Shown: positions 7,801 through 54,517, counted from the stretch's first letter. The stretch: DNA of 64,000 nucleotides from Bacteroidales bacterium (GCA_011620595.1 WOYX01000024.1:10984-74983); one strand, 5' to 3'. Numbers and translations are program-made. The notes: a model not told the origin generated them from the sequence alone.

Positions 7801-7916
7801 TCTCCGGGCCTGACGTTGAGACCAACACCTATGGTGTTTCAAATGGCAATGCATGGTTCAACTACAGTTTCCCTTCCATGCGTACATACACTGTTACTCT
7901 TAGTATAACCCTTTAA
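4848..7916 (+). CDS. SusC/RagA-family TonB-dependent outer-membrane transporter
   Basis: 1022 aa. Signal peptide, then an N-terminal carboxypeptidase-regulatory-like domain (IQGTVTSAEDGSGVPGVMIQVKGTTVGVMTDADGKYVL) and a TonB-box-like DEIVVTALG. The plug motif is LKGAAASALYGSRAANGVILITLK. The C-terminus is beta-barrel-like, and a SusD gene follows 11 nt downstream. Confidence 0.9.
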   Translation: MRKILMFFAVILVTGSVAFAQTRQIQGTVTSAEDGSGVPGVMIQVKGTTVGVMTDADGKYVLNVPAESNTLVFSYVGMKKVEVEIIAGRNTVDVVMEPDTQVMDEIVVTALGIRTERKALGYSTSEVKSDALTATKTNSFATALSGKVAGLNISTTSSQAGSGTRIVLRGGSSITGSNEPLFVVNGVPFDADNSGSSSGLADIDPNAIESLSVLKGAAASALYGSRAANGVILITLKSGEADSKPAVSFKHTSSFDKIYEIPLQKTWAQGNFSMSTYDWTYINGETQFTSTSWGPRIADLDGVEYYDRWQVFRTGYTMDNTLSLTGGTDRSTYFVSYSNTSNDGVVGPLGYKRNSVNANTTFKFTPRLTVSSNVMYSNQDIDRMEEGNANYTFMNTLLASPPSWNPYPIYREDGTLRLFRGGGRDPYLYTLQSTGNNIKRDRFVGSATVEYKIADHLSFRSVTGISTNMSVSQNYKNKGGFVETQGVFNRYNRSSKDFESTEMITYENTFDDFSVNVMAGHNIVQNYWDGMQFEGTGLVVPGIYNTSNVSTYTSEASYGMFRSWSLFGEARIGYKSMLYYTITGRNDWASSINNDYFYPSHSLGFVFSELTKDFNFLDFGKVRLSYAKVGAPASAYTTNVILSQADAQSWLGHSWPFNGQNSYLPSSTYPNPDLQNEFKSEIEGGLEMKFFKNRLGIDLAIYKNWSTNQILWQQLLNSTGYSGGWINIGGITHKGVELAVTGTPVEMKDFKWNLSVTWAKDNSKVDDLGENDEPIDLGSAGWAIVGQPYPVIYGDAFLRDDDGNLVLNDQGSTGQDRTIYARPIIDPRGRKIFGKIEPDWLSSIRNTLSYKNFTLMAQIDIQKGGLIDNFDEHYLTFYGVSVLQENRPEDNRIVFDGVMGHYDYTTQQVVVTNPVNTEWTYYSSYYQTVCQSTEEDNIQPRDFIKLREVSLTYRMPSKVSESLHLNGLDLSLSGRNLWRKFKDGFSGPDVETNTYGVSNGNAWFNYSFPSMRTYTVTLSITL

Positions 7917-7927
7917 TATGAGGTCAG

Positions 7928-9397
7928 ATGAAAAGGAATCTTATTAAAATCAGCATAATTGTTCTGGCTCTGTCAATGATGACCTCATGCCAGAAGTGGT
8001 TGGATATTGATTACAATCCGAATGCCATTACCGAATCGCCAGCTATTGATGAAGGCGTATATCTTACCGGCGTTGAGTCAGAATGGGCTCAGCAGGCCGT
8101 AACTTTTTTTGTATGGTGGAACGGCATGAAGGACTGGTTGCTCTGGTATGCACCCGATGGCACCCAGGGATATGAGACCAGGTTTGAGATCTCAACCGAT
8201 TACGGTATTGAGATATGGGGAGCTTACTCGGGCGCACTGATGCATTCCAATGCCCTTCTTGAAAAGGCAAGGGAAAACCGAAACAAGAGGTTCCAGGGTA
8301 TCGGGGCAGTGATCACCGCATGGCATTGGTTCAATATGGCGGATTATTATGATCAGGCGCCACTGGATGAAGCGCTGAAAGGCGCGGAATTTCCGCATCC
8401 TGCAGTCAACACCCTTGAGGAGATATATACTCATGCCAATGCCCTTCTTGATGAAGCCATTCAGTGCTTTACAGCCAGTGATCCGGGTGACCTTTTGCCT
8501 ACTGCAGCACAGGATTATATATACGGGGCTGATTATGCGAAATGGACCCGTCTCTGCTATTCTCTAAAGGCACGCTATGCTATGAGGCTGACCTATCTCC
8601 CGGGAAAAACACCCGCCGGACAGGCAGACCTGGTATTGCAGTATCTGGAAAACGGCATGCAGAACAATGATGACATGTGCGCATGGGAACACCTGGCAAG
8701 CCTGCAATATGACAGCTATATCTATGAAGAGTCACTTTATGACTACTCCGCAGCCGGCATGACACCCTCGATATATATTGTCAACCTCCTTAACAGCCTT
8801 AATGATCCAAGAAGAATGATCTTCTGGACTGAGGCCGAAGTCGGAGGTTATATCGGTCACCGTAGCGGTACCTCTTCAATAGCCGGTGCCAGACCCTCAA
8901 GGTGGTCAATGAGTTACTGTACCCAAACCTACCCTGATATGATAATGATGTATTCCGAGAACCTGTTCCTGAAGGCTGAGGCACATGCACTCAAGGGTGA
9001 ATACGGCCCTGCTGAGACAGCTATGAAGGCAGGTATCAGGTCTGATATGGAATATCACGGTGTGGCTGAGGCTGACATTTTAAGTTACCTGGCACAGCCC
9101 TTGCTGACCATGCCTACAAGCGTTGAAGAAGCTCAGGAATTGATAATGACACAGAAGTACATCGCCAATACCTTTGAGACTACTGAATCATATTTTGATT
9201 TCATACGGACAGGTTATCCGAGGCTTGATTTCACCACAATCAACCAGGTAATCAATGTCAACACCTTCCCCAGAAGGAATCCCTATCCGCCGGACGAGAT
9301 AGAGAAGAACCCGTCAATTGCAGCACTAGGGCAGCCTGACTATTTCCTGAAAGGGACTGCATGGGACACCAAGCCCTTCAGTTGGAGGTCCAAATAG
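7928..9397 (+). CDS. SusD/RagB-family nutrient-binding outer-membrane lipoprotein
   Basis: Lipobox LALSMMTSC followed by QKWLDIDYNPN, a typical SusD-like N-terminus. 489 aa, immediately downstream of SusC. Confidence 0.85.
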   Translation: MKRNLIKISIIVLALSMMTSCQKWLDIDYNPNAITESPAIDEGVYLTGVESEWAQQAVTFFVWWNGMKDWLLWYAPDGTQGYETRFEISTDYGIEIWGAYSGALMHSNALLEKARENRNKRFQGIGAVITAWHWFNMADYYDQAPLDEALKGAEFPHPAVNTLEEIYTHANALLDEAIQCFTASDPGDLLPTAAQDYIYGADYAKWTRLCYSLKARYAMRLTYLPGKTPAGQADLVLQYLENGMQNNDDMCAWEHLASLQYDSYIYEESLYDYSAAGMTPSIYIVNLLNSLNDPRRMIFWTEAEVGGYIGHRSGTSSIAGARPSRWSMSYCTQTYPDMIMMYSENLFLKAEAHALKGEYGPAETAMKAGIRSDMEYHGVAEADILSYLAQPLLTMPTSVEEAQELIMTQKYIANTFETTESYFDFIRTGYPRLDFTTINQVINVNTFPRRNPYPPDEIEKNPSIAALGQPDYFLKGTAWDTKPFSWRSK

Positions 9398-25501: not shown

Positions 25502-26830
25502 TCAGTTACCGAATCTGGGATTGACTATATTGTTGTATATCGAACCGAAAGTATATGTCAGACCTATGCCGGTCCCGATCTCATAGCCCGTTGCCTGTTC
25601 CCTCAGCCTCAGGAGTCTCTCGGCTTCCGACAGCTCTCCCTTTCTCAGGCTGAGCTGGTCATTAATGCGTGCCGCCTCGAGGTTGAGAGTGAGGGAGAGT
25701 CCCTTGAATATTCTTACGCGGGCAAAGAGGTCTGCGGCTACCATGTTTTTCGATAAGTCATGGAAGTAGTTAAGTCCCCGGAGCGAGAAGTAGATCGAAC
25801 CCCATTTCTTCTGCACCTGGTATGCGACCCTGATCTGATGTACGAAAAGATTCTCTCTGGTCTTGTTGTAAATGGTGGTGTCTGCGTAATTACTGTACTG
25901 GTAACCAATGCTGTAGAGGAACCTGAGCTGACGGTGGGTAGCCTCGGCATAGGGAAACAGATCATACTCTATTGAGGGCATGATCGAAGTATTGAAATCG
26001 TAGTTCTCGGATGTCGATGAGTTCATCTCCCAGATCAGTCCGGCGGACCAGTGGTCACCGAGGCTCTTTACCAACAGGTTTTCCAGTCTTTCGTAGCTTC
26101 TGAGGTAGGTTGTATCAAGATCTTCCTCAATGAATCTCTGTTTCGTATAGCTCTGGTCAAAATCGATCTCCAGCTTGAGGTCAGGGGTTACTTTTGTAAC
26201 TCTCAGCGAGTTTCTCAGGTTCATTCTCTTGTATGACTCTTCTGCATTATACTGCGGGCTTGTTGAGATCTCAAAGACCCAGTTTCTCCATCCGTCGATG
26301 ACCTCTTCCTGCTCGATGGCACTGCCGTGTGTTATGTCTATCTCATAAATTACCGGTGTCCTGCTTGCGAACCTCAGCAGGCCGGCCTTGAGAAGATTGG
26401 TGCGACGCTCCCTGATCTCCGTTGAGGTCTCGTAGGGGTTGCTCATATAGGTCAGGGTGTCGTCCATTCCCGCAAAAATGTCCATCCCGTGAAAAACGTA
26501 AGTATAAAGGTTGCCGCCATTGCCTGAGTTCTGCCGTGTGACAAGTACATATACCTGTGCTTCCCTTACATCCCTGACATAGTTTATCCACGGAATCTCC
26601 TGGCGGGTATAGCTCATGTCGCAGCTGCTGCAGTCGATGAACACCCTGGCGGCATCCTGTCTCAGGTTGATGGCAGGTTGTATATCTTGTTCCCCGGGGT
26701 TACCTGATGCAGGAGGGTCATTTTGCCTCAGGTTTCCTACGGGGGGAGGATTATCCTGGGCGGCTGCGGCGACTGAAAAAAGTGTTGTAAGTAGAAAAAA
26801 AAGCAGTAGTCTGATGTTGTTTTGAATCAT
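25502..26830 (-). CDS. Hypothetical outer-membrane (beta-barrel-like) protein
   Basis: Signal peptide (LLLFFLLTTLFSVAAAAQ), a low-complexity Pro/Asn/Gln linker, and alternating hydrophobic strands towards the C-terminus. No family was recognised. Confidence 0.45.
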   Translation of the reverse strand: MIQNNIRLLLFFLLTTLFSVAAAAQDNPPPVGNLRQNDPPASGNPGEQDIQPAINLRQDAARVFIDCSSCDMSYTRQEIPWINYVRDVREAQVYVLVTRQNSGNGGNLYTYVFHGMDIFAGMDDTLTYMSNPYETSTEIRERRTNLLKAGLLRFASRTPVIYEIDITHGSAIEQEEVIDGWRNWVFEISTSPQYNAEESYKRMNLRNSLRVTKVTPDLKLEIDFDQSYTKQRFIEEDLDTTYLRSYERLENLLVKSLGDHWSAGLIWEMNSSTSENYDFNTSIMPSIEYDLFPYAEATHRQLRFLYSIGYQYSNYADTTIYNKTRENLFVHQIRVAYQVQKKWGSIYFSLRGLNYFHDLSKNMVAADLFARVRIFKGLSLTLNLEAARINDQLSLRKGELSEAERLLRLREQATGYEIGTGIGLTYTFGSIYNNIVNPRFGN

Positions 26831-30252: not shown

Positions 30253-31107
30253 TTATTCATAGTGTTCCCTGTAAAACTCCAGGGCCTTTTTTACCGATCC
30301 CTGCTCCATCAGCAGTATGCGGGCTGCCTCCCTCTGGATGTCCAGCTCCTCAACTATCATCCTGGTACCACGTTCTATCAGCTTCTTGTTGGTGAGCTGC
30401 ATGTTGACCATCTTGTTTCCCTTTACCCGGCCCAGCTTGATCATGAGCGTTGTGGTGATCATGTTCAGCACCATCTTCTGTGCGGTGCCGGCCTTCAGCC
30501 GTGTGCTTCCTGTCACAAACTCAGGTCCTACAACCACCACCACCGGGTACTCGGCGACCTTCACCAGCGGGCTGTCAGGGTTGCATGTGATGCATCCGGT
30601 CAGGATGCCGTTCTGCCTTGCTCTCTGTACCCCACCGATAACATACGGGGTGGTTCCGGAAGCAGCTATCCCGATAACCGAATCCTTGGTGTTGATGTTG
30701 AAAATCTCCAGCTCGCTCCACGCTTTGGAGGGGTCATCCTCGGCAGATTCTACAGCCTTGCGAAGCGCGGTCTCTCCTCCGGCAATCAGCCCGATAACCA
30801 CGGTATCGGGCACACCGAAGGATGGAGGCACCTCTGAGGCGTCCAGCACCCCCAGCCTGCCGCTGGTGCCTGCCCCGAGATAGAAGAGCCTGCCGCCCTT
30901 TTGCATTCTTCCGTGGATCTGGTTGATGAGAGTCTCTATCTGCGGGATCGCTTCCCTGACAGCCAGGTGTACCTTTGCATCTTCCTGGTTTATATTCGTC
31001 AGCAACTCATTGACTGTCATCTTGTCAAGATCCTCAAAGTTGGAGGGCGACTCGGTAATGCTGAGCTGTTGTCTTGTAAGACCTGCTTTACTCGTGGTTC
31101 GGTACAT
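30253..31107 (-). CDS. murQ: N-acetylmuramic acid 6-phosphate etherase
   Basis: Collinear with E. coli MurQ as I recall it: GGRLFYLGAGTSGRLGVLDASEVPPSFG, IGIAASGTTPYVIGG, VTGSTRLKAGTAQKMVLNMITT. The start is placed at the ATG at 31107 (285 aa). The track ORF extends further upstream into the preceding gene. Confidence 0.9.
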   Translation of the reverse strand: MYRTTSKAGLTRQQLSITESPSNFEDLDKMTVNELLTNINQEDAKVHLAVREAIPQIETLINQIHGRMQKGGRLFYLGAGTSGRLGVLDASEVPPSFGVPDTVVIGLIAGGETALRKAVESAEDDPSKAWSELEIFNINTKDSVIGIAASGTTPYVIGGVQRARQNGILTGCITCNPDSPLVKVAEYPVVVVVGPEFVTGSTRLKAGTAQKMVLNMITTTLMIKLGRVKGNKMVNMQLTNKKLIERGTRMIVEELDIQREAARILLMEQGSVKKALEFYREHYE

Positions 31108-31948
31108 CTGGATTCCGGATATGATATTTAACGAGGTTGTCCATCGGAGAGAGGGAGAAAATTCCCGGCTGCAACCTGTGCTCAATAAGCAGCTTCTCGA
31201 GAAATGGCCTGAAATGATATGCAATGCTGCCTGTAAAATGGACAGGATAGTCCCAGGCCTCCGGATAGGAGAGCACATTCCTAACGATGAACTCATCAAA
31301 ACTGGATGTTATTATCGCCTGCAGTTCCGGTATATGTAGGTTGTCAGCGATGAAGAGTGAAAACTGACCAAGAAATTTATTGGGGAAAGGCATGTTGTAC
31401 ACTCTCTCAAGTATCTGAGCCGGAGTATAGTTATAAGTCTTAAAGAAGGTATCTATTACCTCATCCGGGAACTGCTTCTTCAGGATACCTGATACCAGTT
31501 TTCTGCCGATAACAGCACCGCCTCCCTCGTCGCCAAGGATATAACCCAGGGGTGAGACATTCGAGACAATATTTCTTCCGTCATAGTAGCATGAGTTGGA
31601 CCCTGTGCCAATTATGCATGCAATACCTGGCTGATCCATGCAGAGCGACCGCGCTGCACCCAGCAGGTCACTGCCGATAAACAGCTCTTCAATACCAAAA
31701 AAGGAGGTCAGTGCTCCCTTTACTATCTCAACCTTTGAGGCGTTGCTGACTCCGGTACAGTAAAAAAACACTTTGCTGACACCCGCATTTGCAAGCTCAG
31801 GTATCTCTTTACCCAGCATATTGTTTATCTCCTCACGGTTAACAAAAAAAGGATTTATGCCGGAAGATGTGTATGACTTCCCATTACCGGTCTCTGCAAC
31901 CTCTCTCCATTCAGTCTTGGTGGAGCCACTGTCAGCGATCAGTATCAT
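31088..31948 (-). CDS. BadF/BadG/BcrA/BcrD-type ASKHA sugar kinase (MurNAc/GlcNAc kinase, MurK-like)
   Basis: MILIADSGSTKTEW (phosphate-1 motif) and IIGTGSNS (phosphate-2 motif). 286 aa, directly upstream of murQ with a 20-nt overlap. Confidence 0.7.
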   Translation of the reverse strand: MILIADSGSTKTEWREVAETGNGKSYTSSGINPFFVNREEINNMLGKEIPELANAGVSKVFFYCTGVSNASKVEIVKGALTSFFGIEELFIGSDLLGAARSLCMDQPGIACIIGTGSNSCYYDGRNIVSNVSPLGYILGDEGGGAVIGRKLVSGILKKQFPDEVIDTFFKTYNYTPAQILERVYNMPFPNKFLGQFSLFIADNLHIPELQAIITSSFDEFIVRNVLSYPEAWDYPVHFTGSIAYHFRPFLEKLLIEHRLQPGIFSLSPMDNLVKYHIRNPDVPNHE

Positions 31949-32153: not shown

Positions 32154-35100
32154 ATGCGAAGATCCAATCTCCTCTTTTCCCTTTTCCTTTTTCTGATTGT
32201 GCCCGGAATGTTTCAGCCTCTGTCGGGGCAGAAACCCGGCAGGATGCAGCGAATCGCTGAATCAAGGTTGGGTGAGTGGGTCACACCCATCCCGGAATGG
32301 CTTTTCCCGGAAGAGCTGAAGATCGATTCCGTGAGTGTTGATGATCAGCAGAAGGAGGTCAGCATCTGGTTGCCGGCCGAGGCAGCCCATAACCCTGTCA
32401 GGGAGGAGTCGCACGCGCACCTGGTAAACTCCCTCAGGGAGAGTCTGGGAAGGAGATTTTCCGGGTACGGTATAACTGTCCTGTGCGGCGGTCAGCCTCT
32501 TGAGGAGCTCATACCTAACTACTTCAGATATGAGCTTTCCCGTGACGCCGGGAGGATACCTCCCGCGCCGGAGTCGAGGCCCCGGCTTGTACAACGGATC
32601 GGGTCCGCTGAGTATTCCGAAGGTCTTGACGGCAGGAATATTGCCCTGTGGCACAGTCACGGCTACTATTTCGACATGACCCTGGACCGCTGGGAGTGGC
32701 AGCGTGCCAAGCTCTTCGGCAGTGTGGAGGATCTTTCGGTCATGGCCTATGTCATTCCATACCTTGTACCCATGCTTGAGAATTCCGGCGCAACGGTATT
32801 CATACCGCGCGAAAGGGATATCCAGCTAAATGAAGTCATCGTTGATAACAACGGCTCTACGGGCAACTCCGAGTTTGTATTGCAGGTAACCGAGCCTCCC
32901 GTGGAAGCCGGTCCGGGATTCCTGCTCAGGGATACACTCTTCAGCGGTGACAATCCTTTCCTCATGGGCACCTCCCTGACCATCAGCGACGGCTCTGCGC
33001 TGTTTATTCCCGAGATACCCGAAAAGGGATCTTACGGTGTCACGGTCTCCTGGCCCCGCCTGACTGACAATGCAGGCAAGGCGCTTGTCAGGGTCAGTCA
33101 CACCGGCGGCGTGACCGAATTTATTGCAGACCAGTCGATAGGAGGCGGCACCTGGGTCTGGCTCGGTTCCTTCATCTTCGATAAGGGGCTTGACCGCGAC
33201 AGGGGTTCTGTCACCCTCACCTCGACCGACGGTTCACCGGTGGCCGTTGATGCTGTCCGCTTCGGAGGAGGGATGGGCAACGTAGCCCGCCGTCCCTCAT
33301 CATCGGTGATAGCAAACCAGTGGTCGCTCAATGCCGGCGACCAGCCTGCCGGTGATGAGAGCCAATCCGCCGTGAGCTACAGCTGGAAGCTGAGCGGCAA
33401 GCCGAGGTATCTTGAGGCTGCCCGCTACTGGCTCCAGTTTGCAGGTATGCCTGACACACTCGTCTATACTGTTAACCATGGGAGAAACGATTACAATGAC
33501 GACTACATGTCGCGTGCCGAATGGGTCAACTACCTGAATCGCGAGCCCGACAGTACCGGCGGCAACGGCATGGGTATCCCCGTTGACCTCTCCTTCGCAT
33601 TTCATACAGATGCAGGCATCACGCCCGATGATTCCATCATTGGCACTCTCGGTATCTATTCCACCGCAACCAACGAAGGCAGATTCCCCGACGGCACCAG
33701 TCGTCTCGCCAGCCGTGATCTCACTGATATCGTTCAGACCCAGATCGTCGAGGACATATATGTGCTCTTTAATCCCGACTGGACCCGGCGTGCCATGTGG
33801 GACCGTTCCTATTATGAGGCACGCAAGCCCGATGTGCCCGCCATGCTTCTGGAACTGCTCTCTCATCAGAACCTGGCCGACCAGCGTTACGGGTTTGACC
33901 CGCGCTTTCGCTTTCATGTGAGCCGTGCCGTTTACAAGGGTATCCTACGCTACCTGGCCACCGCCTCTGGTATGGAGTATACCATTCATCCGCTGCCAGT
34001 CTCGCACATGGAGCTTGCTCCCCTTGGTGGCAAGAGTGTCAGGCTTAGCTGGACGCCTGTAACTGATCCCCTGGAGTCGACCGCTGACCCGCTCTCATAC
34101 AAAGTATATATGGCTGTCGGCGACAACGGCTTTGATAATGGAAGGGAGGTGACCGGCACCATCCTTAACATCGAGCTTCCGTCATACAACATGCTCTACC
34201 GGTTCAGGGTTACCGCACTGAATGAGGGGGGAGAGAGCTTCCCCTCAGAAACGCTCTCGGCAGGCTTTGTGGCGGATTCTCCGGAGACCGTGCTTGTTGT
34301 CAGCGGCTTTGACCGTATCTCCGGCCCCTCCTGGTTTGACCGCGGCGGTATGGCCGGCGTCGCGTGGTGGGATGACCGCGGGGTGGCTGACCATTACAAT
34401 TTCTCGAATACCGGCGACCAGTATGACTTTAACCGCAGGTCGCCGTGGACAGATGATGACAATGCAGGATGGGGTGCTTCATGGTCTGACGGCGAGGGAA
34501 AGATTATCCCGGGGAACACATTCGACTTTTCTGCCATCCACGGCAGTTCAATCATGGCTGCCGGCAGGTCGTTCATCTCGGTCAGCGATGAGGTGTTCAA
34601 CAGTCCTGAATTCGATCTCAGACCATACGCTGCCGTTGACCTGCTCTTCGGTGAAGAGAAGAGCACACCTTCAGCCTGTTATCCTGAGAGGAAGGAGTTT
34701 CAGATATACACCCCTGAGTTCATGCGGAGCCTGGAGAGACTCACGGAGGCTTCCATACCACTATTCATGTCCGGGGCCTACATCGGCACCGATCTTATGA
34801 TCACGGCTGACAGCGCTGTCAGCGCAAAGGTGATGCAGCTCCTGCATTTCAAACCCCGGACTAACCACGCTGTAAGAACGGGTGAATTCTACGCCACCGA
34901 CATCGCAGGGCCTGACCTCTCAGGTAAATTTTCATTCAACACCGGATCTTATACCGGTATCTATGCAGCCGAATCACCCGATGCCATTGAACCGGCTGAC
35001 AGGAGATCGCGCACAGCATTCCGCTATTCGGAGAACAATACGTCAGCAGCCGTCATGCACAATGGAGAAGTGAGAACTGTGGTCACCGGATTCCCGTTTG

Positions 35101-35171
35101 AGACTGTAACTTCGCAGGAAGAGAGAGACAGACTCATGAAACAGATACTGGATTTCATCTTAAAGAGATAA
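32154..35171 (+). CDS. Large secreted protein with an Amidase_3-like (MurNAc-L-Ala amidase fold) core and an Fn3-like domain
   Basis: Signal peptide. NIALWHSHGYYF, VDLSFAFHTDAG and PAMLLELLSHQNLADQ resemble the Zn-ligand and catalytic-Glu blocks of Amidase_3. VRLSWTPVTDPLESTADPLSYKVYMAV is Fn3-like. Confidence 0.4.
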   Translation: MRRSNLLFSLFLFLIVPGMFQPLSGQKPGRMQRIAESRLGEWVTPIPEWLFPEELKIDSVSVDDQQKEVSIWLPAEAAHNPVREESHAHLVNSLRESLGRRFSGYGITVLCGGQPLEELIPNYFRYELSRDAGRIPPAPESRPRLVQRIGSAEYSEGLDGRNIALWHSHGYYFDMTLDRWEWQRAKLFGSVEDLSVMAYVIPYLVPMLENSGATVFIPRERDIQLNEVIVDNNGSTGNSEFVLQVTEPPVEAGPGFLLRDTLFSGDNPFLMGTSLTISDGSALFIPEIPEKGSYGVTVSWPRLTDNAGKALVRVSHTGGVTEFIADQSIGGGTWVWLGSFIFDKGLDRDRGSVTLTSTDGSPVAVDAVRFGGGMGNVARRPSSSVIANQWSLNAGDQPAGDESQSAVSYSWKLSGKPRYLEAARYWLQFAGMPDTLVYTVNHGRNDYNDDYMSRAEWVNYLNREPDSTGGNGMGIPVDLSFAFHTDAGITPDDSIIGTLGIYSTATNEGRFPDGTSRLASRDLTDIVQTQIVEDIYVLFNPDWTRRAMWDRSYYEARKPDVPAMLLELLSHQNLADQRYGFDPRFRFHVSRAVYKGILRYLATASGMEYTIHPLPVSHMELAPLGGKSVRLSWTPVTDPLESTADPLSYKVYMAVGDNGFDNGREVTGTILNIELPSYNMLYRFRVTALNEGGESFPSETLSAGFVADSPETVLVVSGFDRISGPSWFDRGGMAGVAWWDDRGVADHYNFSNTGDQYDFNRRSPWTDDDNAGWGASWSDGEGKIIPGNTFDFSAIHGSSIMAAGRSFISVSDEVFNSPEFDLRPYAAVDLLFGEEKSTPSACYPERKEFQIYTPEFMRSLERLTEASIPLFMSGAYIGTDLMITADSAVSAKVMQLLHFKPRTNHAVRTGEFYATDIAGPDLSGKFSFNTGSYTGIYAAESPDAIEPADRRSRTAFRYSENNTSAAVMHNGEVRTVVTGFPFETVTSQEERDRLMKQILDFILKR

Positions 35172-35180
35172 ACCAACGTT

Positions 35181-36659
35181 ATGGAGAGAACCATCACATG
35201 CTTTATGCCCTGGTCTGACTCCGGCTCTGTGGCGGCTACAGTCAGATCACTGAGAAGTTCCGTCGTAGTCAGCAGGATCTTCATCGTGGTACCCCCTGAC
35301 CATACTGGTGATATCGGGATACCGGAGACTCAGATTCTTAGATCAGCAGGATTTGTCTCCACCGACGCGCTGAAGAAAATGGCAGCAGTGACCGATACCG
35401 ATTTTGTTTTAATATACAGCAAGGGCTTTCCGCTCGATCCGGGGAAATTTGCCTTCGAACGGTTGATCCAGGTTTGCGAAGGCACAGGTGCCGGCATGGT
35501 CTATTCAGACTACTTCGAGAAAAAGAGTGAGAAGCTCTCATCGCACCCTCTGATAGATTACCAGGAGGGCAGCCTTCGTGACGACTTCAATTTCGGTTCG
35601 GTCATCCTTTACAGTACTGACGCCTTCAGGAAGGCCTGCAGCGCCATGAAGAAAGAATACAGCTTTGCCGGGCTGTACGATCTGAGGCTCAGGGTCTCGC
35701 AGTCTTATCCTGTGCTCCACATCCCGGAGATGCTGTATACCGAGGTGGAAACGGACACCCGCAGGTCGGAGGAGAAGATGTTTGATTACGTTGACCCGCG
35801 CAACAGGGAGGTTCAGATAGAGATGGAAAGGGCCTGCACAGATCACCTCAGGGAGGTCGGCGCCTGGCTCGGACCCCGGTTCAGGGAGATAGCATTTGAT
35901 GATGAGAGCTTTGAATACGATGCCTCTGTTATCATTCCCGTACGAAACAGGGTCAAAACAATCGGTGATGCCATCAGGTCAGTGCTCAGCCAGAAGTCGC
36001 CCTACAGCTTTAACCTGATAATCGTTGACAATCATTCCACCGACGGCACAACCGATGTTGTAAGGTCATTTGCAGGCGACAGCAGGGTGGTGCATATAAT
36101 TCCGGAAAGAGATGATCTGGGTATCGGCGGATGCTGGAACGAGGCTCTCTTCAGCGACAAGTGCGGCAAGTTTGCGATACAGCTTGACAGTGACGACCTC
36201 TATATAGACGACACGGTGGTGACCAGGATCGTTGATGCCTTTCAGGAGCAGCAGTGCGCCATGGTGGTAGGCTCGTACAGGATGGTCAACTTTGAGCTGA
36301 AGGATATCCCTCCGGGACTGATAGACCACAGGGAGTGGACCCCTGACAACGGCAGGAACAATGCGTTGAGGATCAATGGCCTCGGGGCTCCGAGGGCATT
36401 TTACACACCTGTGCTGCGAACCGTGAGGGTACCCAACGTCAGCTATGGCGAGGATTATGCTGTCGGGCTCGCCATAAGCCGACACTACAGGATAGGACGT
36501 ATATATGAACCTCTCTATCTCTGCCGCCGCTGGGATGAAAACTCCGATGCGTTGCTGGATGTGGAAACGATGAATGCACATAATCTTTATAAGGACAGGA
36601 TACGCACTCTGGAGCTTCTTGCCAGGAGACGGATGATCAGCAGCGGGAGGAGAAACTGA
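35181..36659 (+). CDS. Family-2 glycosyltransferase with a ~240-aa N-terminal extension
   Basis: ASVIIPVRNRVKTIGDAIRSVLSQKSPYSFNLIIVDNHSTDGT (GT-A fold) and the DxD-like QLDSDDLY. No signal peptide. Confidence 0.75.
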   Translation: MERTITCFMPWSDSGSVAATVRSLRSSVVVSRIFIVVPPDHTGDIGIPETQILRSAGFVSTDALKKMAAVTDTDFVLIYSKGFPLDPGKFAFERLIQVCEGTGAGMVYSDYFEKKSEKLSSHPLIDYQEGSLRDDFNFGSVILYSTDAFRKACSAMKKEYSFAGLYDLRLRVSQSYPVLHIPEMLYTEVETDTRRSEEKMFDYVDPRNREVQIEMERACTDHLREVGAWLGPRFREIAFDDESFEYDASVIIPVRNRVKTIGDAIRSVLSQKSPYSFNLIIVDNHSTDGTTDVVRSFAGDSRVVHIIPERDDLGIGGCWNEALFSDKCGKFAIQLDSDDLYIDDTVVTRIVDAFQEQQCAMVVGSYRMVNFELKDIPPGLIDHREWTPDNGRNNALRINGLGAPRAFYTPVLRTVRVPNVSYGEDYAVGLAISRHYRIGRIYEPLYLCRRWDENSDALLDVETMNAHNLYKDRIRTLELLARRRMISSGRRN

Positions 36660-36730
36660 AAAGCAGCTGCAGGTAAAGCTGAAGAGCAGATGTATGCTGA
36701 GGAGTATTCACAGGGGAAATTGAAAACCAG

Positions 36731-37669
36731 ATGTACGATCACTCAGATATTGTAAATGATCTTTTTGAGAGCCAGTTCAGGGAGTGGCCCCTGGCGCGCG
36801 ACAACTACGGTCAGCTCGACAGTGTGAGGGTAAGGAAGATACCCTTCCCGGGCTATGAGATCGCCGTGCAGTTCAATCCCGGGAGGATCGTCTCATCCGC
36901 GGCGATGGTGGATGCCGGTTCCATCAAAGCGAGGCCCTGTTTCCTCTGTGAGGATAACAGGCCGCCGGAGCAGAGGGGAGTGCCCTTTGGCAGTGATTAC
37001 ATCATCCTGATCAATCCCTTCCCGATCTTCAGGCGTCATCTCACCATTGTTAACCGGGCACACACGCCGCAGCAGATAGAAGGCAACTTCTTATCCATGC
37101 TTTCAATGGCAGAGGCACTGCCCGATTTTGTCATCTTCTATAACGGTCCGCAGTGCGGTGCCTCAGCTCCCGACCACCTCCATTTTCAGGCGGGCAACAG
37201 GGGGTTTCTGCCGGTGGAAATGGATGCCGGAAACCCTGGTCTCAGCAGTACTGTGGCCTCCTCAGGGGGTATTGAACTCCGTCTGTGGAGCGGCTACGGC
37301 AGGGGGATGCTGACTCTTGCGGGGAGCGACAGCAGGGCTCTCGACAATGCCTTTACCCGTTTCTACAATAAGTTTGCCGCCACACAGCCTGAAAGGCCGG
37401 AGCCCATGCTGAACATGCTGGCTTACCATTCCGCGGGCAGATGGACAATACACATCATACCCCGCAGGCTCCACAGGCCGTCGTGCTACTTTGCCGCTGA
37501 GCCGGGGAGGATTCTACTGAGCCCGGCATCAGTTGACATGGGAGGGGTATTCATCACCCCCAGGGAAGAAGATTACATAAAGATCACCGCCGCTGATATC
37601 AGCAGCATCCTCGAAGAGGTGTGCCTGAGCGACGGGGAGGTGAAATCATTAACGGAAGGATTATTATGA
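36731..37669 (+). CDS. DUF4922-like HIT/GalT-superfamily nucleotidyl-transferase or nucleotide-sugar phosphorylase
   Basis: APDHLHFQAG carries the HxHxQ motif of the GalT / GDP-L-galactose-phosphorylase branch. An upstream CFLC Cys pair is present. Confidence 0.55.
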   Translation: MYDHSDIVNDLFESQFREWPLARDNYGQLDSVRVRKIPFPGYEIAVQFNPGRIVSSAAMVDAGSIKARPCFLCEDNRPPEQRGVPFGSDYIILINPFPIFRRHLTIVNRAHTPQQIEGNFLSMLSMAEALPDFVIFYNGPQCGASAPDHLHFQAGNRGFLPVEMDAGNPGLSSTVASSGGIELRLWSGYGRGMLTLAGSDSRALDNAFTRFYNKFAATQPERPEPMLNMLAYHSAGRWTIHIIPRRLHRPSCYFAAEPGRILLSPASVDMGGVFITPREEDYIKITAADISSILEEVCLSDGEVKSLTEGLL

Positions 37670-39009
37670 AGGAGAGAAGTTTTCCCGAAATAAGCGTGGG
37701 TATTGTGTCAGGCAAGGCACTGACAGTCACTCTCAACGGAGAGTACAATGTCTCCGGGGGAGAGAGAAGCATAAAGGGTCAGTGGACTGCAGCAATCAGT
37801 GACGGGAGAGTGCTGCTTACAGGTGACGGAGCCGCCCTGCATGCAGGCAGGGAGCTGATACTGGTGCCAACAGATGACCTGCGCTGCAGCTTCACCCTAC
37901 ATGCCGTGACCATAGGCGTCGCCTTTCACTGGGAGCGCAATGAGGACCAGACCTTCGTGGGTAAGCTGAAGTTCATGATCATTGAAGGTCAGGTTACGGC
38001 AGTCAATCTGGTACCTGTCGAGGATTATCTTGCCAGTGTGATCTCCTCGGAGATGAGTGCCACCTCATCGGTGGAGCTGCTGAAGGCGCACGCCGTAATC
38101 TCAAGGAGCTGGCTGGTGGCGCAGATCGACAAAACCGCGCGGCTGGAGGCAGGCGGAAAGAGACATATTGCAAACCAGGTCACTGAAAGTGAAATCATAC
38201 GGTGGTATGACCGGGAAGACCATAAGGAGTATGATGTCTGCGCTGATGATCACTGCCAGCGTTACCAGGGCATTACCAGGGCAACAACGCCGGAGGTGGA
38301 GAGCGCTGTGCGGGAGACAGCCGGGGAGGTGCTCATGTCAGGCGATACCCTGTGCGATGCACGTTACTCCAAGTGCTGCGGCGGTATCACCGAACTGTTT
38401 GAAAACGTATGGGAGCCGGTGAGCCACGACTGTCTGCAGAGTATCACAGATGCTGCCCAACCGCCGGAGGGCTTCGACACGGATCTCACCGTGGAGGAGA
38501 ATGCCGTCAGATGGATCAGGGGAAACCCCGAAGCCTATTGCAATACCGGTGACAGGGCGGTTCTGGCGCAGGTGCTCAACAGCTATGACCAGGAGACCAA
38601 CGACTTCTTCCGTTGGAAGGTGGCATACAGGCAGGAGGAGCTGAGTGGGCTGGTGAGGGAGCGTACCGGCATCGACTTCGGTATGATAACAGCACTGGAA
38701 CCGTTGGAACGAGGCACCTCCGGACGAATCATAAAACTGAAGATCACGGGTGACAAAAAGAGTATGATAATAGGCAAGGAACTGGAGATAAGAAAGGCAC
38801 TCTCAACGTCGCATCTTTACAGCTCGGCCTTCTTTGTAGAGACGGAAGATAATGAACATGGCAGATCGTTTATCCTTCACGGCGCCGGCTGGGGTCACGG
38901 GGTGGGACTCTGCCAGATAGGAGCCGCGGTGATGGGTGCCGCGGGCTTCGGATACAGGGAGATTCTCTCGCACTATTTTGTACATTCAGTGCTTCAAAGG
39001 ATATACTGA
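37666..39009 (+). CDS. SpoIID/LytB-domain protein (lytic transglycosylase family)
   Basis: YLASVISSEMSATSSVELLKAHAVISRSW, DVCADDHCQRYQG, CDARYSKCCGG, GHGVGLCQIGA. The start is placed at the ATG at 37666 (ATGA overlap with the upstream stop). No obvious signal peptide. Confidence 0.75.
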   Translation: MKERSFPEISVGIVSGKALTVTLNGEYNVSGGERSIKGQWTAAISDGRVLLTGDGAALHAGRELILVPTDDLRCSFTLHAVTIGVAFHWERNEDQTFVGKLKFMIIEGQVTAVNLVPVEDYLASVISSEMSATSSVELLKAHAVISRSWLVAQIDKTARLEAGGKRHIANQVTESEIIRWYDREDHKEYDVCADDHCQRYQGITRATTPEVESAVRETAGEVLMSGDTLCDARYSKCCGGITELFENVWEPVSHDCLQSITDAAQPPEGFDTDLTVEENAVRWIRGNPEAYCNTGDRAVLAQVLNSYDQETNDFFRWKVAYRQEELSGLVRERTGIDFGMITALEPLERGTSGRIIKLKITGDKKSMIIGKELEIRKALSTSHLYSSAFFVETEDNEHGRSFILHGAGWGHGVGLCQIGAAVMGAAGFGYREILSHYFVHSVLQRIY

Positions 39010-41481: not shown

Positions 41482-43152
41482 ATGGCAGGCAAGAATGCCA
41501 ACCGGTCACCATGGGCGTGGGTTCCTTCGCTCTATTTTTACCAGGGTATTCCCTATAGCATCGTGATGACCACCTCGGGTCTCATCTACAAGACAATGGG
41601 TATCTCGATAGCCTCGTTTGCATTCTGGACGAGCATTCTCTATCTTCCCTGGGCGCTGAAGCCACTCTGGAGCCCGTACATAGATGTAGTCTCCACCAAA
41701 CGCAACTGGGTGGTGTGGACGCAGCTGTTGATCGCAGCCACCTTTGTCGGTGCCGGCCTTGCGATGCAGCTTCCGCTATTCTATCCAATCACCATAGCGA
41801 TCTTTGCCATCATCGCCATCTCGTCGGCGAGCCATGACATAGCCGCTGACGGGTTCTATATGTATGCCCTCAACCAGCACAAGCAGGCCTATTTTGTAGG
41901 TATACGAAGCACCTTCTACCGTTTTGCAATGCTGACCGCGCTGGGGCTGATACCGCTGGTTGCCGGGATAGTACAGAAAAACACCGGTCTTGAGCCTCTC
42001 GCTTTTGAGGCGAGATCAGTGGTTATGACAGATTATCAGCCTTTTGATCCTGCGCTTATAGAGATTAAGGAAGAGCCCGGAGAACCCCGGATACTGCTCT
42101 ACCCCGAGGAGATTACCGTGCCGATGTGGGAGGCGGGGGTCTCCGAGCTCGACTCAGCAGTTATTTACATAGCCCTCTCCGCTCCGCCGGAGGAGGGAGA
42201 GACCATCGTTGTCAATATTGCCCGCGAAAGCGGAAGCAAGGATATCGATATACCCAGGAACCAGGTAAGCAGGTTCGAGTTCACCGGCAGCAACTGGAAC
42301 GTCCCTGTTGCCGTCTCGCTGAAAACCCATCATAACCTCAAGGAGGTCACAACGGCGGAGTTTGGCATCACCGCCGGCAATATAGCCTTCAGCTGGACAG
42401 TATCGCTGGGGGTACTCGGGCTGCTGCTGCTTCTGCTGGCGCTCTATAACCGCTATATTCTTCCGCGGCCTCCAGAGAACGACATCCGTGAGAAGGTAAG
42501 CCTGAAGGTCTTTGTTGAGGTCTTCGTCTCCTTCTTCACCAAGCCGGGTGTTGTCGCTGCCCTCGCCTTCTTCCTTCTTTACAGGCTTGGCGAGGCACAG
42601 CTGGTGAAGATCGCCACACCATTCCTGGTCGATTCCAGGAGCATGGGCGGCATAGGGTTAACATCGGCACAGTATGGCATCATCTACGGTACCCTGGGGA
42701 TGGTCTGCCTGACCATAGGGGGTATCCTCGGCGGCATCCTTGCAGCGAAGTACGGGCTGAAAAAGCTGATCTGGTACATGGCTGTGGCAATGAACCTGCC
42801 CAACGTGGTATATGTCTATCTTGCATTTGCCCAGCCCATGCCGGGTGATCTGGGGGTCTACCTCTCCATCGCTACGGAACAGTTCGGTTACGGCTTCGGG
42901 TTTACGGCCTATTCTCTCTTCATGCTCTATTATGTGGGAGAGAGTAAATACAAGACCGCCGAGTTCGCCATAGGTACCTCACTGATGGCCCTCGGGATGA
43001 TGCTGCCGGGTATGGTATCGGGAAAGATATACGAGGCGATAGGCTATGAACACTTCTTCATCTGGGTGTTGATATGCACCATTCCGGGGATGCTCTCGAT
43101 ACTGTTCCTGAAGATCGATCCCGGGTTTGGACTCAAGAAGAACGAAGATTAA
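41482..43152 (+). CDS. ampG: AmpG-family muropeptide MFS permease with a ~135-aa insertion in the central loop
   Basis: LKPLWSPYID and SSASHDIAADGF match E. coli AmpG FKFLWSPLMD and SASQDIVFDAW. A non-hydrophobic insert lies at about aa 168-303. Confidence 0.65.
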   Translation: MAGKNANRSPWAWVPSLYFYQGIPYSIVMTTSGLIYKTMGISIASFAFWTSILYLPWALKPLWSPYIDVVSTKRNWVVWTQLLIAATFVGAGLAMQLPLFYPITIAIFAIIAISSASHDIAADGFYMYALNQHKQAYFVGIRSTFYRFAMLTALGLIPLVAGIVQKNTGLEPLAFEARSVVMTDYQPFDPALIEIKEEPGEPRILLYPEEITVPMWEAGVSELDSAVIYIALSAPPEEGETIVVNIARESGSKDIDIPRNQVSRFEFTGSNWNVPVAVSLKTHHNLKEVTTAEFGITAGNIAFSWTVSLGVLGLLLLLLALYNRYILPRPPENDIREKVSLKVFVEVFVSFFTKPGVVAALAFFLLYRLGEAQLVKIATPFLVDSRSMGGIGLTSAQYGIIYGTLGMVCLTIGGILGGILAAKYGLKKLIWYMAVAMNLPNVVYVYLAFAQPMPGDLGVYLSIATEQFGYGFGFTAYSLFMLYYVGESKYKTAEFAIGTSLMALGMMLPGMVSGKIYEAIGYEHFFIWVLICTIPGMLSILFLKIDPGFGLKKNED

Positions 43153-52750: not shown

Positions 52751-54517
52751 ATGAATATTAAAGCGCGTCAGGAGGCTGAACACTTTCTGAAAAATGAGAC
52801 GCAATTTCATCTTGGCATGCTGCCGACAGAACAGGCTAATCCCAGGACCAGCAACCTCGACAGTATATTTGCTCAAAGCACCGGCGAGGGAGTGAAAACA
52901 CTGTTGTCAGTAGATACGGATATATTTCCGATGGCTGAAAAGATTTTCAGGAGCAGGGAGTATGACAAACTGGTAAAGGACGGAGTGAAGGCAATCTCCG
53001 ATGGAAAGAAGATTGTATTTTCAGGATGCGGCGCCACTGGCCGTTTAAGTATCCTGCTTGAATCATTCTGGAGATGCTTTTTCAGGGATCTGCGGCAGGA
53101 TCATCCGGATATCTATGAAAGAGTAAAACATGTTGAGAACTCCGTATTCAGTATTATGACGGGGGGTGATTACGCACTTATCAGGGCTGTGGAGTATTTT
53201 GAGGATTACCAGGAATTTGGCAGGCAGCAGGTGAGGGAACTTAATATTAACGAAGGCGATATTCTTGTTGCTATAACCGAGGGAGGTGAGACCTCGTCAG
53301 TTCTGGGCACACTTGCAGAAGCTGCTGACAGGGGTGCTGAAGTATTCCTAATGTTTAACAATCCCGCCGATATCCTTTGCAAATATATTGAGCGTTCCAG
53401 AAAAGCCATTGAAGATCCTCGTGTTACTGTGCTTGACCTGTACTGCGGACCGATGGCAATTGCAGGCTCCACACGGATGCAGGCAACAACATCGGAACAG
53501 CTAATTGCCGGGGCAGCCCTGGAATCAATACTGGGAGGGACTTTCAGCAAGCTGCTTTCAGCTGAAGAACTGAAGATTCTCAATATCAGGGAGATTGATT
53601 ATGCCGGGGCATACAATGAGATGCTAAATGAACTGCTCTCTGTTGAAAACACGAAGATCCTCGGGGATTATATCCGGATGGAGCACGACATCTACAGCCG
53701 GAACGGACTGGTCACCTACTACGGCAATTCCCTGATGCTGGATATCTTCACTGACACTACCGAACGCTCTCCGACATTCATGCTACCGCCATTCAGGAAA
53801 TATGACGACACTGTTTCGCCACCATCATGGGCTTTTGTCAAGAATCCTCTTCTGCCCACTCCCGAAGCATGGGTAAATGTCCTGGGGCGTACCCCCAGAT
53901 GTCTTGAGTGGGAGGGGGAACTGTACAGTAAAATGAATGCTCCGCAGGCACTCATATCAGACCCTCCTCAGCTTGATATATCGCAGATCCTCAAATTTCA
54001 GATCGGCAATGAAGAGGATAAATCACGTTTATCAAGAAAGCCTAATGTTGCAGTTAATGTGATCAGTCGCCTGGAAGTGACACGGCCGGAATATGAAGAC
54101 TATCAGGCAGCCTTCAATGAAGAAGCGGAAAAGTACCTGAGCAGATATTCCCTGATAATAGGGACATGCGATGAGGCAGCCAGTTATAAGATATCCTGTT
54201 CGCCGCAAAGTTCGGTTTTCAGTCTAATGGACCGGCTGGCAGTCAAGCTTGTACTGAATACGGTTTCGACCGGAACCATGGTTTTAATGGGAAGGGTGTT
54301 GGGCAACTGGATGAGCTGGGTTGATGTTACCAACAAGAAGCTTAAAGACAGAGGCATAAGGTTGATTTCCGATATCTGTAACATGAGTTACGAAGAGGCG
54401 TGCTATGCCCTCCATGAATCACTGGAAGAATTAAAATCCTACAATTTTTCCGAGAAGGAAAAACCATCGCCGGTTCAGTACACTATTAAGAAGATCATAT
54501 CTTCCCGGAAGGATTGA
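52751..54517 (+). CDS. Double-SIS, MurQ-related protein of glucokinase-regulatory-protein (GCKR) architecture
   Basis: 588 aa, against 285 aa for MurQ. FSGCGATGRLS and CGPMAIAGSTRMQATTSEQL parallel MurQ GAGTSGRLG and GSTRLKAGTAQK. A long extra C-terminal half is present. Confidence 0.55.
   Translation: MNIKARQEAEHFLKNETQFHLGMLPTEQANPRTSNLDSIFAQSTGEGVKTLLSVDTDIFPMAEKIFRSREYDKLVKDGVKAISDGKKIVFSGCGATGRLSILLESFWRCFFRDLRQDHPDIYERVKHVENSVFSIMTGGDYALIRAVEYFEDYQEFGRQQVRELNINEGDILVAITEGGETSSVLGTLAEAADRGAEVFLMFNNPADILCKYIERSRKAIEDPRVTVLDLYCGPMAIAGSTRMQATTSEQLIAGAALESILGGTFSKLLSAEELKILNIREIDYAGAYNEMLNELLSVENTKILGDYIRMEHDIYSRNGLVTYYGNSLMLDIFTDTTERSPTFMLPPFRKYDDTVSPPSWAFVKNPLLPTPEAWVNVLGRTPRCLEWEGELYSKMNAPQALISDPPQLDISQILKFQIGNEEDKSRLSRKPNVAVNVISRLEVTRPEYEDYQAAFNEEAEKYLSRYSLIIGTCDEAASYKISCSPQSSVFSLMDRLAVKLVLNTVSTGTMVLMGRVLGNWMSWVDVTNKKLKDRGIRLISDICNMSYEEACYALHESLEELKSYNFSEKEKPSPVQYTIKKIISSRKD

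Follow-up and report, generated by a model that had tools for sequence, protein, structure and literature searches.

We analyzed a window of 64,000 nucleotides (nt) from a Bacteroidales bacterium (GCA_011620595.1 WOYX01000024.1:10984-74983; positions below are counted in this whole stretch unless another locus is named) and describe here three co-directional open reading frames (ORFs) spanning 35181-39009, which encode a family 2 glycosyltransferase (the GT2 protein), a protein of the DUF4922 family and a SpoIID-like protein. This trio is embedded in a peptidoglycan salvage cluster, and the module that it forms is widespread in the Bacteroidota, where its genes have already been noticed in the literature but are uncharacterized. 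We consider it very probable that the three proteins make up one cytoplasmic module acting on the peptide-free disaccharides imported by the permease AmpG, namely N-acetylglucosamine-N-acetylmuramic acid (GlcNAc-MurNAc) and its anhydro form, GlcNAc-1,6-anhydroMurNAc. The three genes, and the two domains of the first product, are as follows (aa, amino acids):

35181-36659, + strand: GT2 gene, 492 aa; its start lies 9 nt past the stop of a gene for a secreted amidase-like (AmiX-like) protein
35181..35900, + strand: GT2 N-terminal domain, residues 1-240; predicted second GT-A fold (AlphaFold2 (AF2)/Foldseek)
35925..36659, + strand: GT2 C-terminal catalytic GT-A domain (PF00535, residues 249-382, 6e-20)
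36731-37669, + strand: DUF4922 gene, 312 aa (PF16269)
37666-39009, + strand: SpoIID-like gene, 447 aa (TIGR02669)

Three cytoplasmic proteins and their families

The preliminary description of this DNA had reported a GT2, a DUF4922 protein carrying HLHFQ and a SpoIID protein lacking a signal peptide, the last two joined by an ATGA overlap; ORFs, family profiles and hydropathy all agree with it, and positions 37666-37669 do read ATGA, with the SpoIID-like start codon overlapping the DUF4922 stop. No 19-residue Kyte-Doolittle window reached 1.6 in any of the three proteins, and the hydropathy scan found neither a hydrophobic N-terminus nor a membrane segment in any of them, while the same scan gave clear N-terminal hydrophobic peaks for the neighboring AmiX-like and NamZ proteins. 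A promoter/terminator scan inside the trio gave no interpretable signal over shuffled background. Only oil-field metagenome runs contained near-identical DNA of 35181-39009 (share 0.98-1.00); the region was partly covered in groundwater metagenome runs (share 0.54-0.67), and no RNA run containing the sequence was found among the runs matched. The source is an uncultured bacterium of oil-field metagenomes.

Enzymes of the GalT branch of the HIT superfamily transfer a nucleoside monophosphate (NMP) from an NDP-X donor (NDP, nucleoside diphosphate) to phosphate or to a sugar-1-phosphate via a histidine adduct. The DUF4922 protein matched PF16269 at 5e-62 (208.6 bits against a cutoff of 23.6) and, just over the cutoff, Ap4A_phos_N (24.9 against 23.1 bits), with weak NCBIfam matches to galT_2 uridylyltransferases; the precomputed annotation of its own cluster and of nearly all its homologues also lists PF26216 (GDPGP1_C), and DUF4922 and GDPGP1_C together span the whole protein. 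HLHFQ occupies residues 149-153 (nt 37175-37189), with H149, H151 and Q153 invariant in three alignments (13, 73 and 79 sequences), and C70 and C73 of C70-F-L-C73 and H103 are invariant as well (73-79 sequences). A single-sequence PDB search with this protein returned no meaningful match, and a PDB profile search returned only yeast Apa2 (E 0.013), whose DHKHLQ aligns with DHLHFQ. Structure was approached through an AF2 model of a natural DUF4922-SpoIID fusion orthologue (locus L028, not the window protein; pLDDT 88.1, with moderately confident inter-domain geometry, pTM 0.65), which matched Apa2 4i5t at E 1.4e-9 and TM 0.56-0.64 over ~310 residues, the two-lobed HIT-like fold, followed by DUF4931 4qvu and the uridylyltransferase 6k9z. 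The family comprises 1750 clusters at 50 % identity (E <= 0.001) and more than 7500 at 90 %.

Profiles and motifs show the DUF4922 protein to be homologous over its full length to the GDPGP1/VTC2/Apa2 branch of HIT enzymes, in keeping with its earlier assignment to the HIT superfamily, GalT branch, and with the catalytic residues retained it looks like an active nucleotidyl-transferring enzyme. As far as its sequence goes, the acceptor may be either phosphate or a sugar-1-phosphate; a sugar-1-phosphate/NDP-sugar step beside a glycosyltransferase would be the natural reading. The domain is also carried by animal GDPGP1 and by plant GDP-L-galactose phosphorylases (PMC7041677, PMC11047344), and in our literature search the term DUF4922 appeared only in papers on these plant and animal enzymes.

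The SpoIID-like protein matched both PF08486 (1.7e-24) and TIGR02669 (162 bits, cutoff 83.3), a family in which SpoIID cuts MurNAc-beta-1,4-GlcNAc in peptide-free glycan and leaves 1,6-anhydro-MurNAc. Its catalytic Glu129, in SVISSEM (nt 38050-38052), aligns with the SEM/GEM glutamate of 4rwr and 5i1t, and the motifs DVCADDHC (the C...HC cluster) and GHGVGLCQIGA align with SpoIID of B. anthracis and C. difficile; this glutamate, the Cys/His cluster and the GHGVG(L/M)xQxGA block are invariant in the family, and the L028 fusion model matched C. difficile SpoIID 5i1t at E 8e-12 (TM 0.74). Two parts are additional to this core, an N-terminal beta domain (~residues 1-110) and a ~75-residue insert (~255-330). 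Neither a signal peptide nor an upstream in-frame extension was found in any of 71 homologues (0/71), where the ORF opens directly before a conserved P-E-I-x-V-G-I, itself directly preceded by either a stop codon or the last DUF4922 residues, in no case by a hydrophobic stretch. An alternative GTG start at 37621 was rejected, as it adds only MPERRGGEIINGRII, which is hydrophilic and provides no signal peptide. Hydropathy and the homologue N-termini thus bear out the earlier view of a SpoIID protein lacking a signal peptide; none of the trio proteins carries an export signal, and no upstream start, in the window or in the homologues, supplies one to the SpoIID-like protein.

In the GT2 protein, PF00535 scored 72 bits (cutoff 23.3) with a match limited to residues 249-382, and the DSDD at residues 336-339 (nt 36186-36197) is invariant at every position (D336, S337, D338 and D339; 63 sequences). 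Residues 1-240 had no Pfam match, also when the threshold was relaxed to E 0.1. Conservation in this half nevertheless equals that of the catalytic half in the same 63 sequences, with RDDFxFG (133-139), D192, R194, K199 and DYVDPxNR (202-209) invariant. A PDB profile search returned K4CP (best), TarP and SpsA; the AF2 model of the protein, built with 63 orthologues, was of high quality (pLDDT 89.8, pTM 0.87) with an alpha/beta pattern in the N-domain, and Foldseek placed the tandem GT-A enzymes K4CP (E 3e-20), PmHS2 and LH3 as the best matches to the full-length model. There is no DxD in the N-domain, where Y79-S-K81 occupies the position of the C-domain DSDD. Because hhalign, run on the N half against the C half, gave no significant score (E 0.044, probability 1 %), the internal GT-A duplication rests on AF2 and Foldseek.

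The ~240-aa extension that the preliminary description had called unexplained is therefore present as described, and it is no longer without explanation: as modeled, its fold is that of a second, DxD-less GT-A domain. The domain may serve, like that of LH3, in an accessory or acceptor-binding capacity, or it may form a metal-independent site; by the usual DxD criterion it is not a second transferase of the K4CP type. We also considered the GT2 protein as a bifunctional tandem GT-A polymerase and rejected this, the N-domain lacking DxD even though there are two GT-A domains.

Conservation and genomic setting of the module

A pattern scan with each species represented by one genome gave 584 confirmed DUF4922 relatives, of which 80 loci were kept, from Rikenellaceae-like metagenome-assembled genomes (MAGs), Bacteroides, Mediterranea, Muribaculaceae, Barnesiella, Dysgonomonas, Marinilabiliales and Cytophagales; neighbors were counted by mapping the window proteins onto these loci. 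GT2 lay immediately 5' of DUF4922 in 71/73 loci and SpoIID immediately 3' in 74/75, AmpG followed DUF4922 within 6 kb downstream in every case (61/61), and the AmiX-like gene preceded the trio in 56 of 62. The DSDD, the HxHxQ and the SEM glutamate are all invariant across 63-79 orthologues. Across the 80 loci, then, the trio holds together as a unit tied to cell-wall salvage, so the non-conservation that the preliminary description had named as refuting its reading is not seen.

Fusions join the same three proteins. In the isolate Carboxylicivirga linearis and in one MAG, DUF4922 and SpoIID form a single ORF with no stop between them; at the junction there is no canonical in-frame start in C. 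linearis, while the MAG has two in-frame ATGs. A search restricted to DUF4922 proteins of at least 417 aa, with the best 120 counted, gave ~105 DUF4922-SpoIID fusions and 5 GT2-DUF4922 fusions, one of the latter in a compact operon (NamZ-SSF-fusion-SpoIID-AmpG-MurK-MurQ), and a triple GT2-DUF4922-SpoIID fusion of 1214 aa also exists. SpoIID is thus the partner most often fused to DUF4922, although the unfused form is the majority (~130 of the best 150 cluster representatives measure 250-390 aa). Conservation in the fused proteins was read from a fused-only alignment, as mixing them with unfused rows misaligned the C-terminal half of DUF4922 and that alignment was discarded. Since SpoIID is fused behind nucleotide-dependent cytoplasmic domains, the fusions are strong evidence, at the level of sequence, that all three enzymes act in the cytoplasm and in one process. 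A cytoplasmic SpoIID joined to an NDP-sugar enzyme and a glycosyltransferase is what makes the trio unusual.

Several rarer architectures were seen: an exosortase-EpsH-like N-terminus on one DUF4922 protein (P0325), and DUF559 endonuclease-like and WecG-type GT parts on others (P0139, P0155, P0161, P0167; P0150, P0159). They may reflect ORFs joined by gene calling on short contigs and not real fusions.

An optional fourth member, absent from the window, is a GNAT acetyltransferase. In Cytophagia-type and related loci one or more GNAT genes lie between DUF4922 and SpoIID:

L031:10930-11850: GNAT genes in tandem
L055:4728-5663: GNAT genes in tandem
L062:2941-3858: GNAT genes in tandem
L027:6603-7106: single GNAT gene

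Other DUF4922 proteins carry the GNAT as an N-terminal fusion (P0301, P0323, P0388), and at L084:4362-5867 such a GNAT-DUF4922 fusion directly follows GT2. The arrangement would tie an N-acetylation step to the DUF4922 substrate and recalls the two activities of GlmU. At L031, from a member of the Roseivirgaceae, glycogen-synthase-like GT4/GT5 and carbohydrate-phosphorylase-like genes lie upstream of DUF4922 (6144-9289) and there is no tandem GT2, which is either chance adjacency or a variant module. Local inserts at other loci include an AmiA-like amidase (L052) and a transglutaminase-like protein (L071).

In the window, the genes nearest the trio that bear on its setting are:

32154..35171, + strand: AmiX-like gene, which opens the operon; a secreted 1005-aa protein with Amidase_3-like, Golvesin_C and Fn3 domains (Pfam; N-terminal hydrophobic peak)
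41482..43152, + strand: AmpG-family muropeptide permease (TIGR00901, 3.8e-44)
31088-31948, - strand: MurK-like kinase (Pfam BcrAD_BadFG)
30253-31299, - strand: MurQ etherase (Pfam SIS/GKRP_SIS_N)

The MurK-like and MurQ genes run divergently from the operon, together with GntR and GH18 genes, and are conserved beside it in relatives. Downstream of the trio are a GH9+CE4 gene, AmpG, a FAD/Fe-S oxidase of the D-lactate type and a long NagB; NamZ is convergent, and beyond it come an NlpC/P60 peptidase, an L-Ala-D/L-Glu epimerase, a second SIS protein and SusC/D pairs. Apart from the trio, the operon is catabolic, a salvage set (MurK, MurQ, NagB, NamZ, oxidase). Pfam and NCBIfam searches of the operon proteins revealed no anomeric kinase or pyrophosphorylase and no match to folds of the AmgK/MurU type (anomeric kinase plus NTP-dependent uridylyltransferase), and Pfam scans of the larger ORFs of the 64-kb window found no GH3 or GH20 hexosaminidase and no AnmK.

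The second SIS protein (52751-54517, 588 aa, with a GKRP/MurQ-type SIS domain) stands after the NlpC/P60 and epimerase genes and before a SusC/SusD pair, and could be a second etherase-like or a regulatory SIS protein of the same regulon. A 442-aa ORF at 25502-26830 (- strand), between purL and the DUF4126/GH18/GntR genes, had no Pfam match at E 0.01. In tblastn searches of loci L003-L016 the alignment of the window AmpG often broke mid-protein (coverage 0.8-0.9, identity down to 39-52 %), a pattern that fits a putative variable soluble insert in the central loop.

In Bacteroides the gene order is NamZ, SSF transporter, AmiX, metallophosphoesterase/beta-propeller, GT2, DUF4922, SpoIID, AmpG, NamZ, FAD/Fe-S oxidase, MurT-like, MurK and MurQ. 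The phosphoesterase/beta-propeller gene, which in B. clarus (L042:6620-8494) encodes a 624-aa protein with a calcineurin-like phosphoesterase and a PQQ/BamB-like beta-propeller between the AmiX-like gene and GT2, is absent from the window, and no MurT-type transporter (HGSNAT_cat-like, as at B. clarus L042:17836-19026) was found among the window ORFs scanned.

The preliminary description had proposed an "undescribed" shunt, and in this respect it needs correction: the cluster matches the ampG-murTKQ operon of Tannerella forsythia, whose gtf/gtf/lytB genes have been published as being of unknown function. The match is by published gene descriptions and not by alignment of the Tanf sequences, although a GT2-DUF4922 protein from a Tannerella sp. 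(P0177) is among our homologues. Tanf_08345-08385 comprise a "xanthan lyase" (the name given there to the AmiX-like protein), gtf, gtf, lytB, ampG, ybbC/namZ1, murT, murK and murQ, and are co-transcribed and directly activated by GppX (PMC5388701). Tanf_08345, 08350 and 08355 are of unknown function and Tanf_08360 is a putative lytic transglycosylase (bioRxiv 10.1101/2021.12.02.470905). In T. forsythia AmpG imports GlcNAc-MurNAc and GlcNAc-anhMurNAc (PMC5388701; bioRxiv 10.1101/2021.12.02.470905) and is required for growth on peptidoglycan, with cell extracts yielding mainly GlcNAc-MurNAc; the operon is AmpG-dependent, and the species grows on GlcNAc-anhMurNAc, yet no AnmK is predicted (PMC5388701, PMC7670621). 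The genes glmS, glmU, murA and murB are missing (PMC5790795). Compared with this operon, the window adds GH9+CE4, the FAD/Fe-S oxidase and the long NagB, and its murK and murQ are divergent; the second gene, a glycosyltransferase in the T. forsythia papers, has here a HIT/GDPGP1-like counterpart (again as matched by description). We found no paper assigning a function to the trio, and none of relevance under the probable B. thetaiotaomicron tags BT0125-0127.

As published, the pathway goes no further than AmpG, leaving the splitting of the disaccharide and the use of anhydro-MurNAc without AnmK unexplained (PMC7670621), and the trio offers three concrete candidate enzymes for these post-AmpG steps. 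Peptidoglycan scavenging and recycling in the Bacteroidota bear on gut Bacteroides, on MurNAc-auxotrophic periodontal T. forsythia and on environmental decomposers alike.

Possible reactions on AmpG cargo

From the coupling of the three genes, their linkage to AmpG and the lack of export signals, we infer that the trio processes AmpG cargo. The secreted amidase-like protein and other periplasmic enzymes would trim foreign or own peptidoglycan before import. For what follows in the cytoplasm we tentatively favor, as a possibility that we would not yet call probable, an NDP-dependent phosphorolytic processing of GlcNAc-(anh)MurNAc to N-acetylhexosamine (HexNAc)-1-phosphates, the scheme in which no part is left without a role. 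The GT2 reaction connects an alpha-NDP-sugar with a beta-glycoside; acting in the direction of cleavage on the beta-1,4 bond, the tandem GT-A enzyme would convert disaccharide and NDP to NDP-HexNAc and the remaining sugar, the non-reducing sugar thus being removed as an NDP-sugar. The DUF4922 protein, forming a covalent NMP-enzyme at His151 and interconverting NDP-HexNAc with NDP and HexNAc-1-phosphate with phosphate as acceptor, would then phosphorolyse the NDP-sugar and return the NDP, so that the two enzymes would amount to a glycoside phosphorylase split over two proteins, in which the nucleotide is catalytic. The cytoplasmic SpoIID-like enzyme would handle the MurNAc beta-glycosidic or 1,6-anhydro bond by cutting imported oligomers or, alternatively, would transfer the anhydro-MurNAc end back onto a GlcNAc 4-OH for processing.

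The products would be HexNAc-1-phosphates for MurU- or GlmU-type enzymes and free MurNAc for MurK and MurQ, by a route that costs no adenosine triphosphate (ATP) and could stand in for NagZ plus AnmK; the GNAT would fit if de-N-acetylated residues gave glucosamine-1-phosphate (GlcN-1-P) that is then acetylated for re-use. By approximate textbook free energies, the conversion of glycoside and phosphate to sugar-1-phosphate lies near equilibrium, as it does in the usual disaccharide phosphorylases. Formation of the NDP-sugar intermediate is uphill, and its level would have to stay low, perhaps helped by fusion or channeling; a nucleotide other than uridine diphosphate (UDP) would sidestep the large UDP-GlcNAc pool. 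Should this chemistry hold, a SpoIID-type lytic transglycosylase would for the first time be seen at work in the cytoplasm, a glycosyltransferase and an NDP-sugar phosphorylase would offer a new case of joint action as a phosphorylase, and bacterial DUF4922 proteins would gain a first function.

Several considerations weigh against this split phosphorylase. All three functions are read from sequence and models, and the enzyme chemistry is predicted. Leloir glycosyltransferases rarely reverse in vivo, the size of the UDP-GlcNAc pool would favor the forward reaction of a UDP-dependent enzyme, and the tandem GT-A architecture is that of the polymerases K4CP and PmHS2. The GNAT that is fused to or lies beside DUF4922 in some lineages, with its likeness to GlmU, may point to an activating, anabolic direction. 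We also know of no precedent for a lytic-transglycosylase step run in reverse.

A bolder form of the phosphorolytic scheme, which we think improbable, would make it a hydrolysis-free and ATP-free route from imported muropeptide to activated precursors, replacing NagZ, AnmK and AmgK in the Bacteroidota. The SpoIID-like enzyme, in reverse, would use a GlcNAc 4-OH as acceptor and so open the 1,6-anhydro ring of GlcNAc-anhMurNAc; the tandem GT-A enzyme would strip non-reducing-end sugars as NDP-sugars with catalytic NDP; and phosphorolysis by DUF4922 would yield GlcNAc-1-P and MurNAc-1-P and regenerate the NDP, with the accessory GNAT re-acetylating residues that had lost their N-acetyl group. If true, this would explain how T. 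forsythia uses anhydro-muropeptides without AnmK.

The same enzymes could be imagined to run in the opposite, anabolic direction, with DUF4922, after the manner of GalT or LnpC, passing the NMP of another NDP-sugar to HexNAc-1-phosphate to give NDP-HexNAc, and GT2 transferring the sugar forwards to MurNAc, anhMurNAc or an oligosaccharide; in some lineages the GNAT would first make GlcNAc-1-P from GlcN-1-P, as GlmU does. This we judge rather unlikely, although several points favor it: glycosyltransferases normally run forwards, the GNAT-DUF4922 fusions and the GNATs between DUF4922 and SpoIID resemble GlmU with its pairing of two activities, DUF4922 has its weak galT_2 matches and its fold match to 6k9z, and T. 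forsythia, lacking glmS, glmU, murA and murB, needs another route to UDP-amino sugars (PMC5790795). Neither product nor acceptor can be named, however, the SpoIID-like enzyme and the strict AmpG linkage are left without a role, the operon has no anomeric kinase, and the best-matching characterized relatives (Apa2, GDPGP1, VTC2) are phosphorylases. The module is, moreover, equally conserved in Bacteroides, which probably has GlmU and MurA/B. For the shunt of the preliminary description, in which a recovered amino sugar would be re-activated and transferred in functional analogy to AmgK/MurU, the consequences are mixed: a real, conserved, salvage-linked trio with an NDP-sugar step beside a glycosyltransferase stands, while a biosynthetic direction of flux is unsupported. 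Re-activation of the AmgK/MurU kind, as it had been put, is not supported: the operon has neither anomeric kinase nor pyrophosphorylase, the closest characterized relatives of DUF4922 are phosphorylases, and the SpoIID-like enzyme is assigned no role; the opposite direction, phosphorolytic release of HexNAc-1-P from the disaccharide, fits at least as well.

Other explanations divide the trio. Within the cytoplasm, the SpoIID-like enzyme might hydrolyze MurNAc bonds, serving for instance as a 1,6-anhydro-MurNAc hydrolase that replaces AnmK, with GT2 and DUF4922 serving a separate, co-regulated glycosylation. The retained catalytic glutamate and the lack of a predicted AnmK in T. forsythia (PMC7670621) are consistent with this, as are the first naming of the operon as "glycosylation related" and the glycosylation phenotypes of the T. 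forsythia gppX mutant, as far as the account in PMC5388701, citing Niwa 2011, goes; but the pairwise and triple fusions and the fixed order beside AmpG favor one pathway and not two, and GT2 is soluble, without a membrane segment, so that we hold the division to be improbable. Still less likely, and by a wide measure, is a DUF4922 that destroys a wrong NDP-sugar arising from amino-sugar salvage, with GT2 and SpoIID loosely connected: for animal GDPGP1 a quality-control role as GDP-D-glucose phosphorylase has been described (Adler 2011, in the words of its citation in PMC7041677) and DUF4922 plus GDPGP1_C cover the entire protein, yet fusions with a lytic transglycosylase and a glycosyltransferase, or an occurrence only beside AmpG, would be surprising in a proofreading housekeeper. 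An export of the SpoIID-like protein by an unrecognized signal or route, to act on the sacculus like classical SpoIID/LytB, seems to us barely credible, with no signal peptide or upstream in-frame extension in the 71 homologues and a SpoIID domain that, in thousands of clusters, follows a nucleotide-dependent enzyme in one fused protein, with no hydrophobic linker visible in those fusions whose sequences were read. What speaks for it is that, to our knowledge, every characterized SpoIID/LytB enzyme is extracytoplasmic, together with the T. forsythia annotation as an "amidase enhancer precursor" (PMC5388701).

Relation to known systems

Each member of the trio resembles known enzymes and departs from them in some respects. 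K4CP (2Z86), PmHS2 (8VIW) and LH3 (6FXM), like the GT2 protein, carry two GT-A domains in one soluble chain. In K4CP and PmHS2, however, both domains have a DxD and are catalytic, whereas the N-domain here has Y-x-K; the non-catalytic accessory domain of LH3 resembles it in this respect, yet the N-domain here is very strongly conserved. GDPGP1/VTC2 and Apa2 (4I5T) share with the DUF4922 protein the Pfam families, the HxHxQ and the two-lobed fold (Foldseek E 1e-9 with the orthologue model), and their chemistry is the model for the phosphorolysis proposed above; Apa2 is only ~15-19 % identical to the window protein, and, unlike all of these, the DUF4922 protein is bacterial, stands in a peptidoglycan context and has family members fused to SpoIID, GT2 and GNAT. 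The SpoIID of Bacillus and C. difficile (4RWR, 5I1T) belongs to the same TIGR02669 family and has the same catalytic glutamate, Cys/His cluster and fold, and its preference for denuded glycan fits the amidase-like gene upstream of the trio. The protein here differs from classical SpoIID in having no signal peptide or anchor, in its N-terminal beta domain and insert, and in being often fused to a cytoplasmic nucleotide enzyme.

As a pathway, the trio would take the same post-AmpG place as NagZ and AnmK in E. coli, AmgK and MurU in Pseudomonas, GlmU, and LnpC of the bifidobacterial lacto-N-biose/galacto-N-biose (LNB/GNB) route, probably with similar HexNAc-1-P and NDP-HexNAc intermediates. The folds are unrelated, and the trio includes no ATP- or UTP-dependent enzyme, so that the likeness to these systems is one of functional analogy only.

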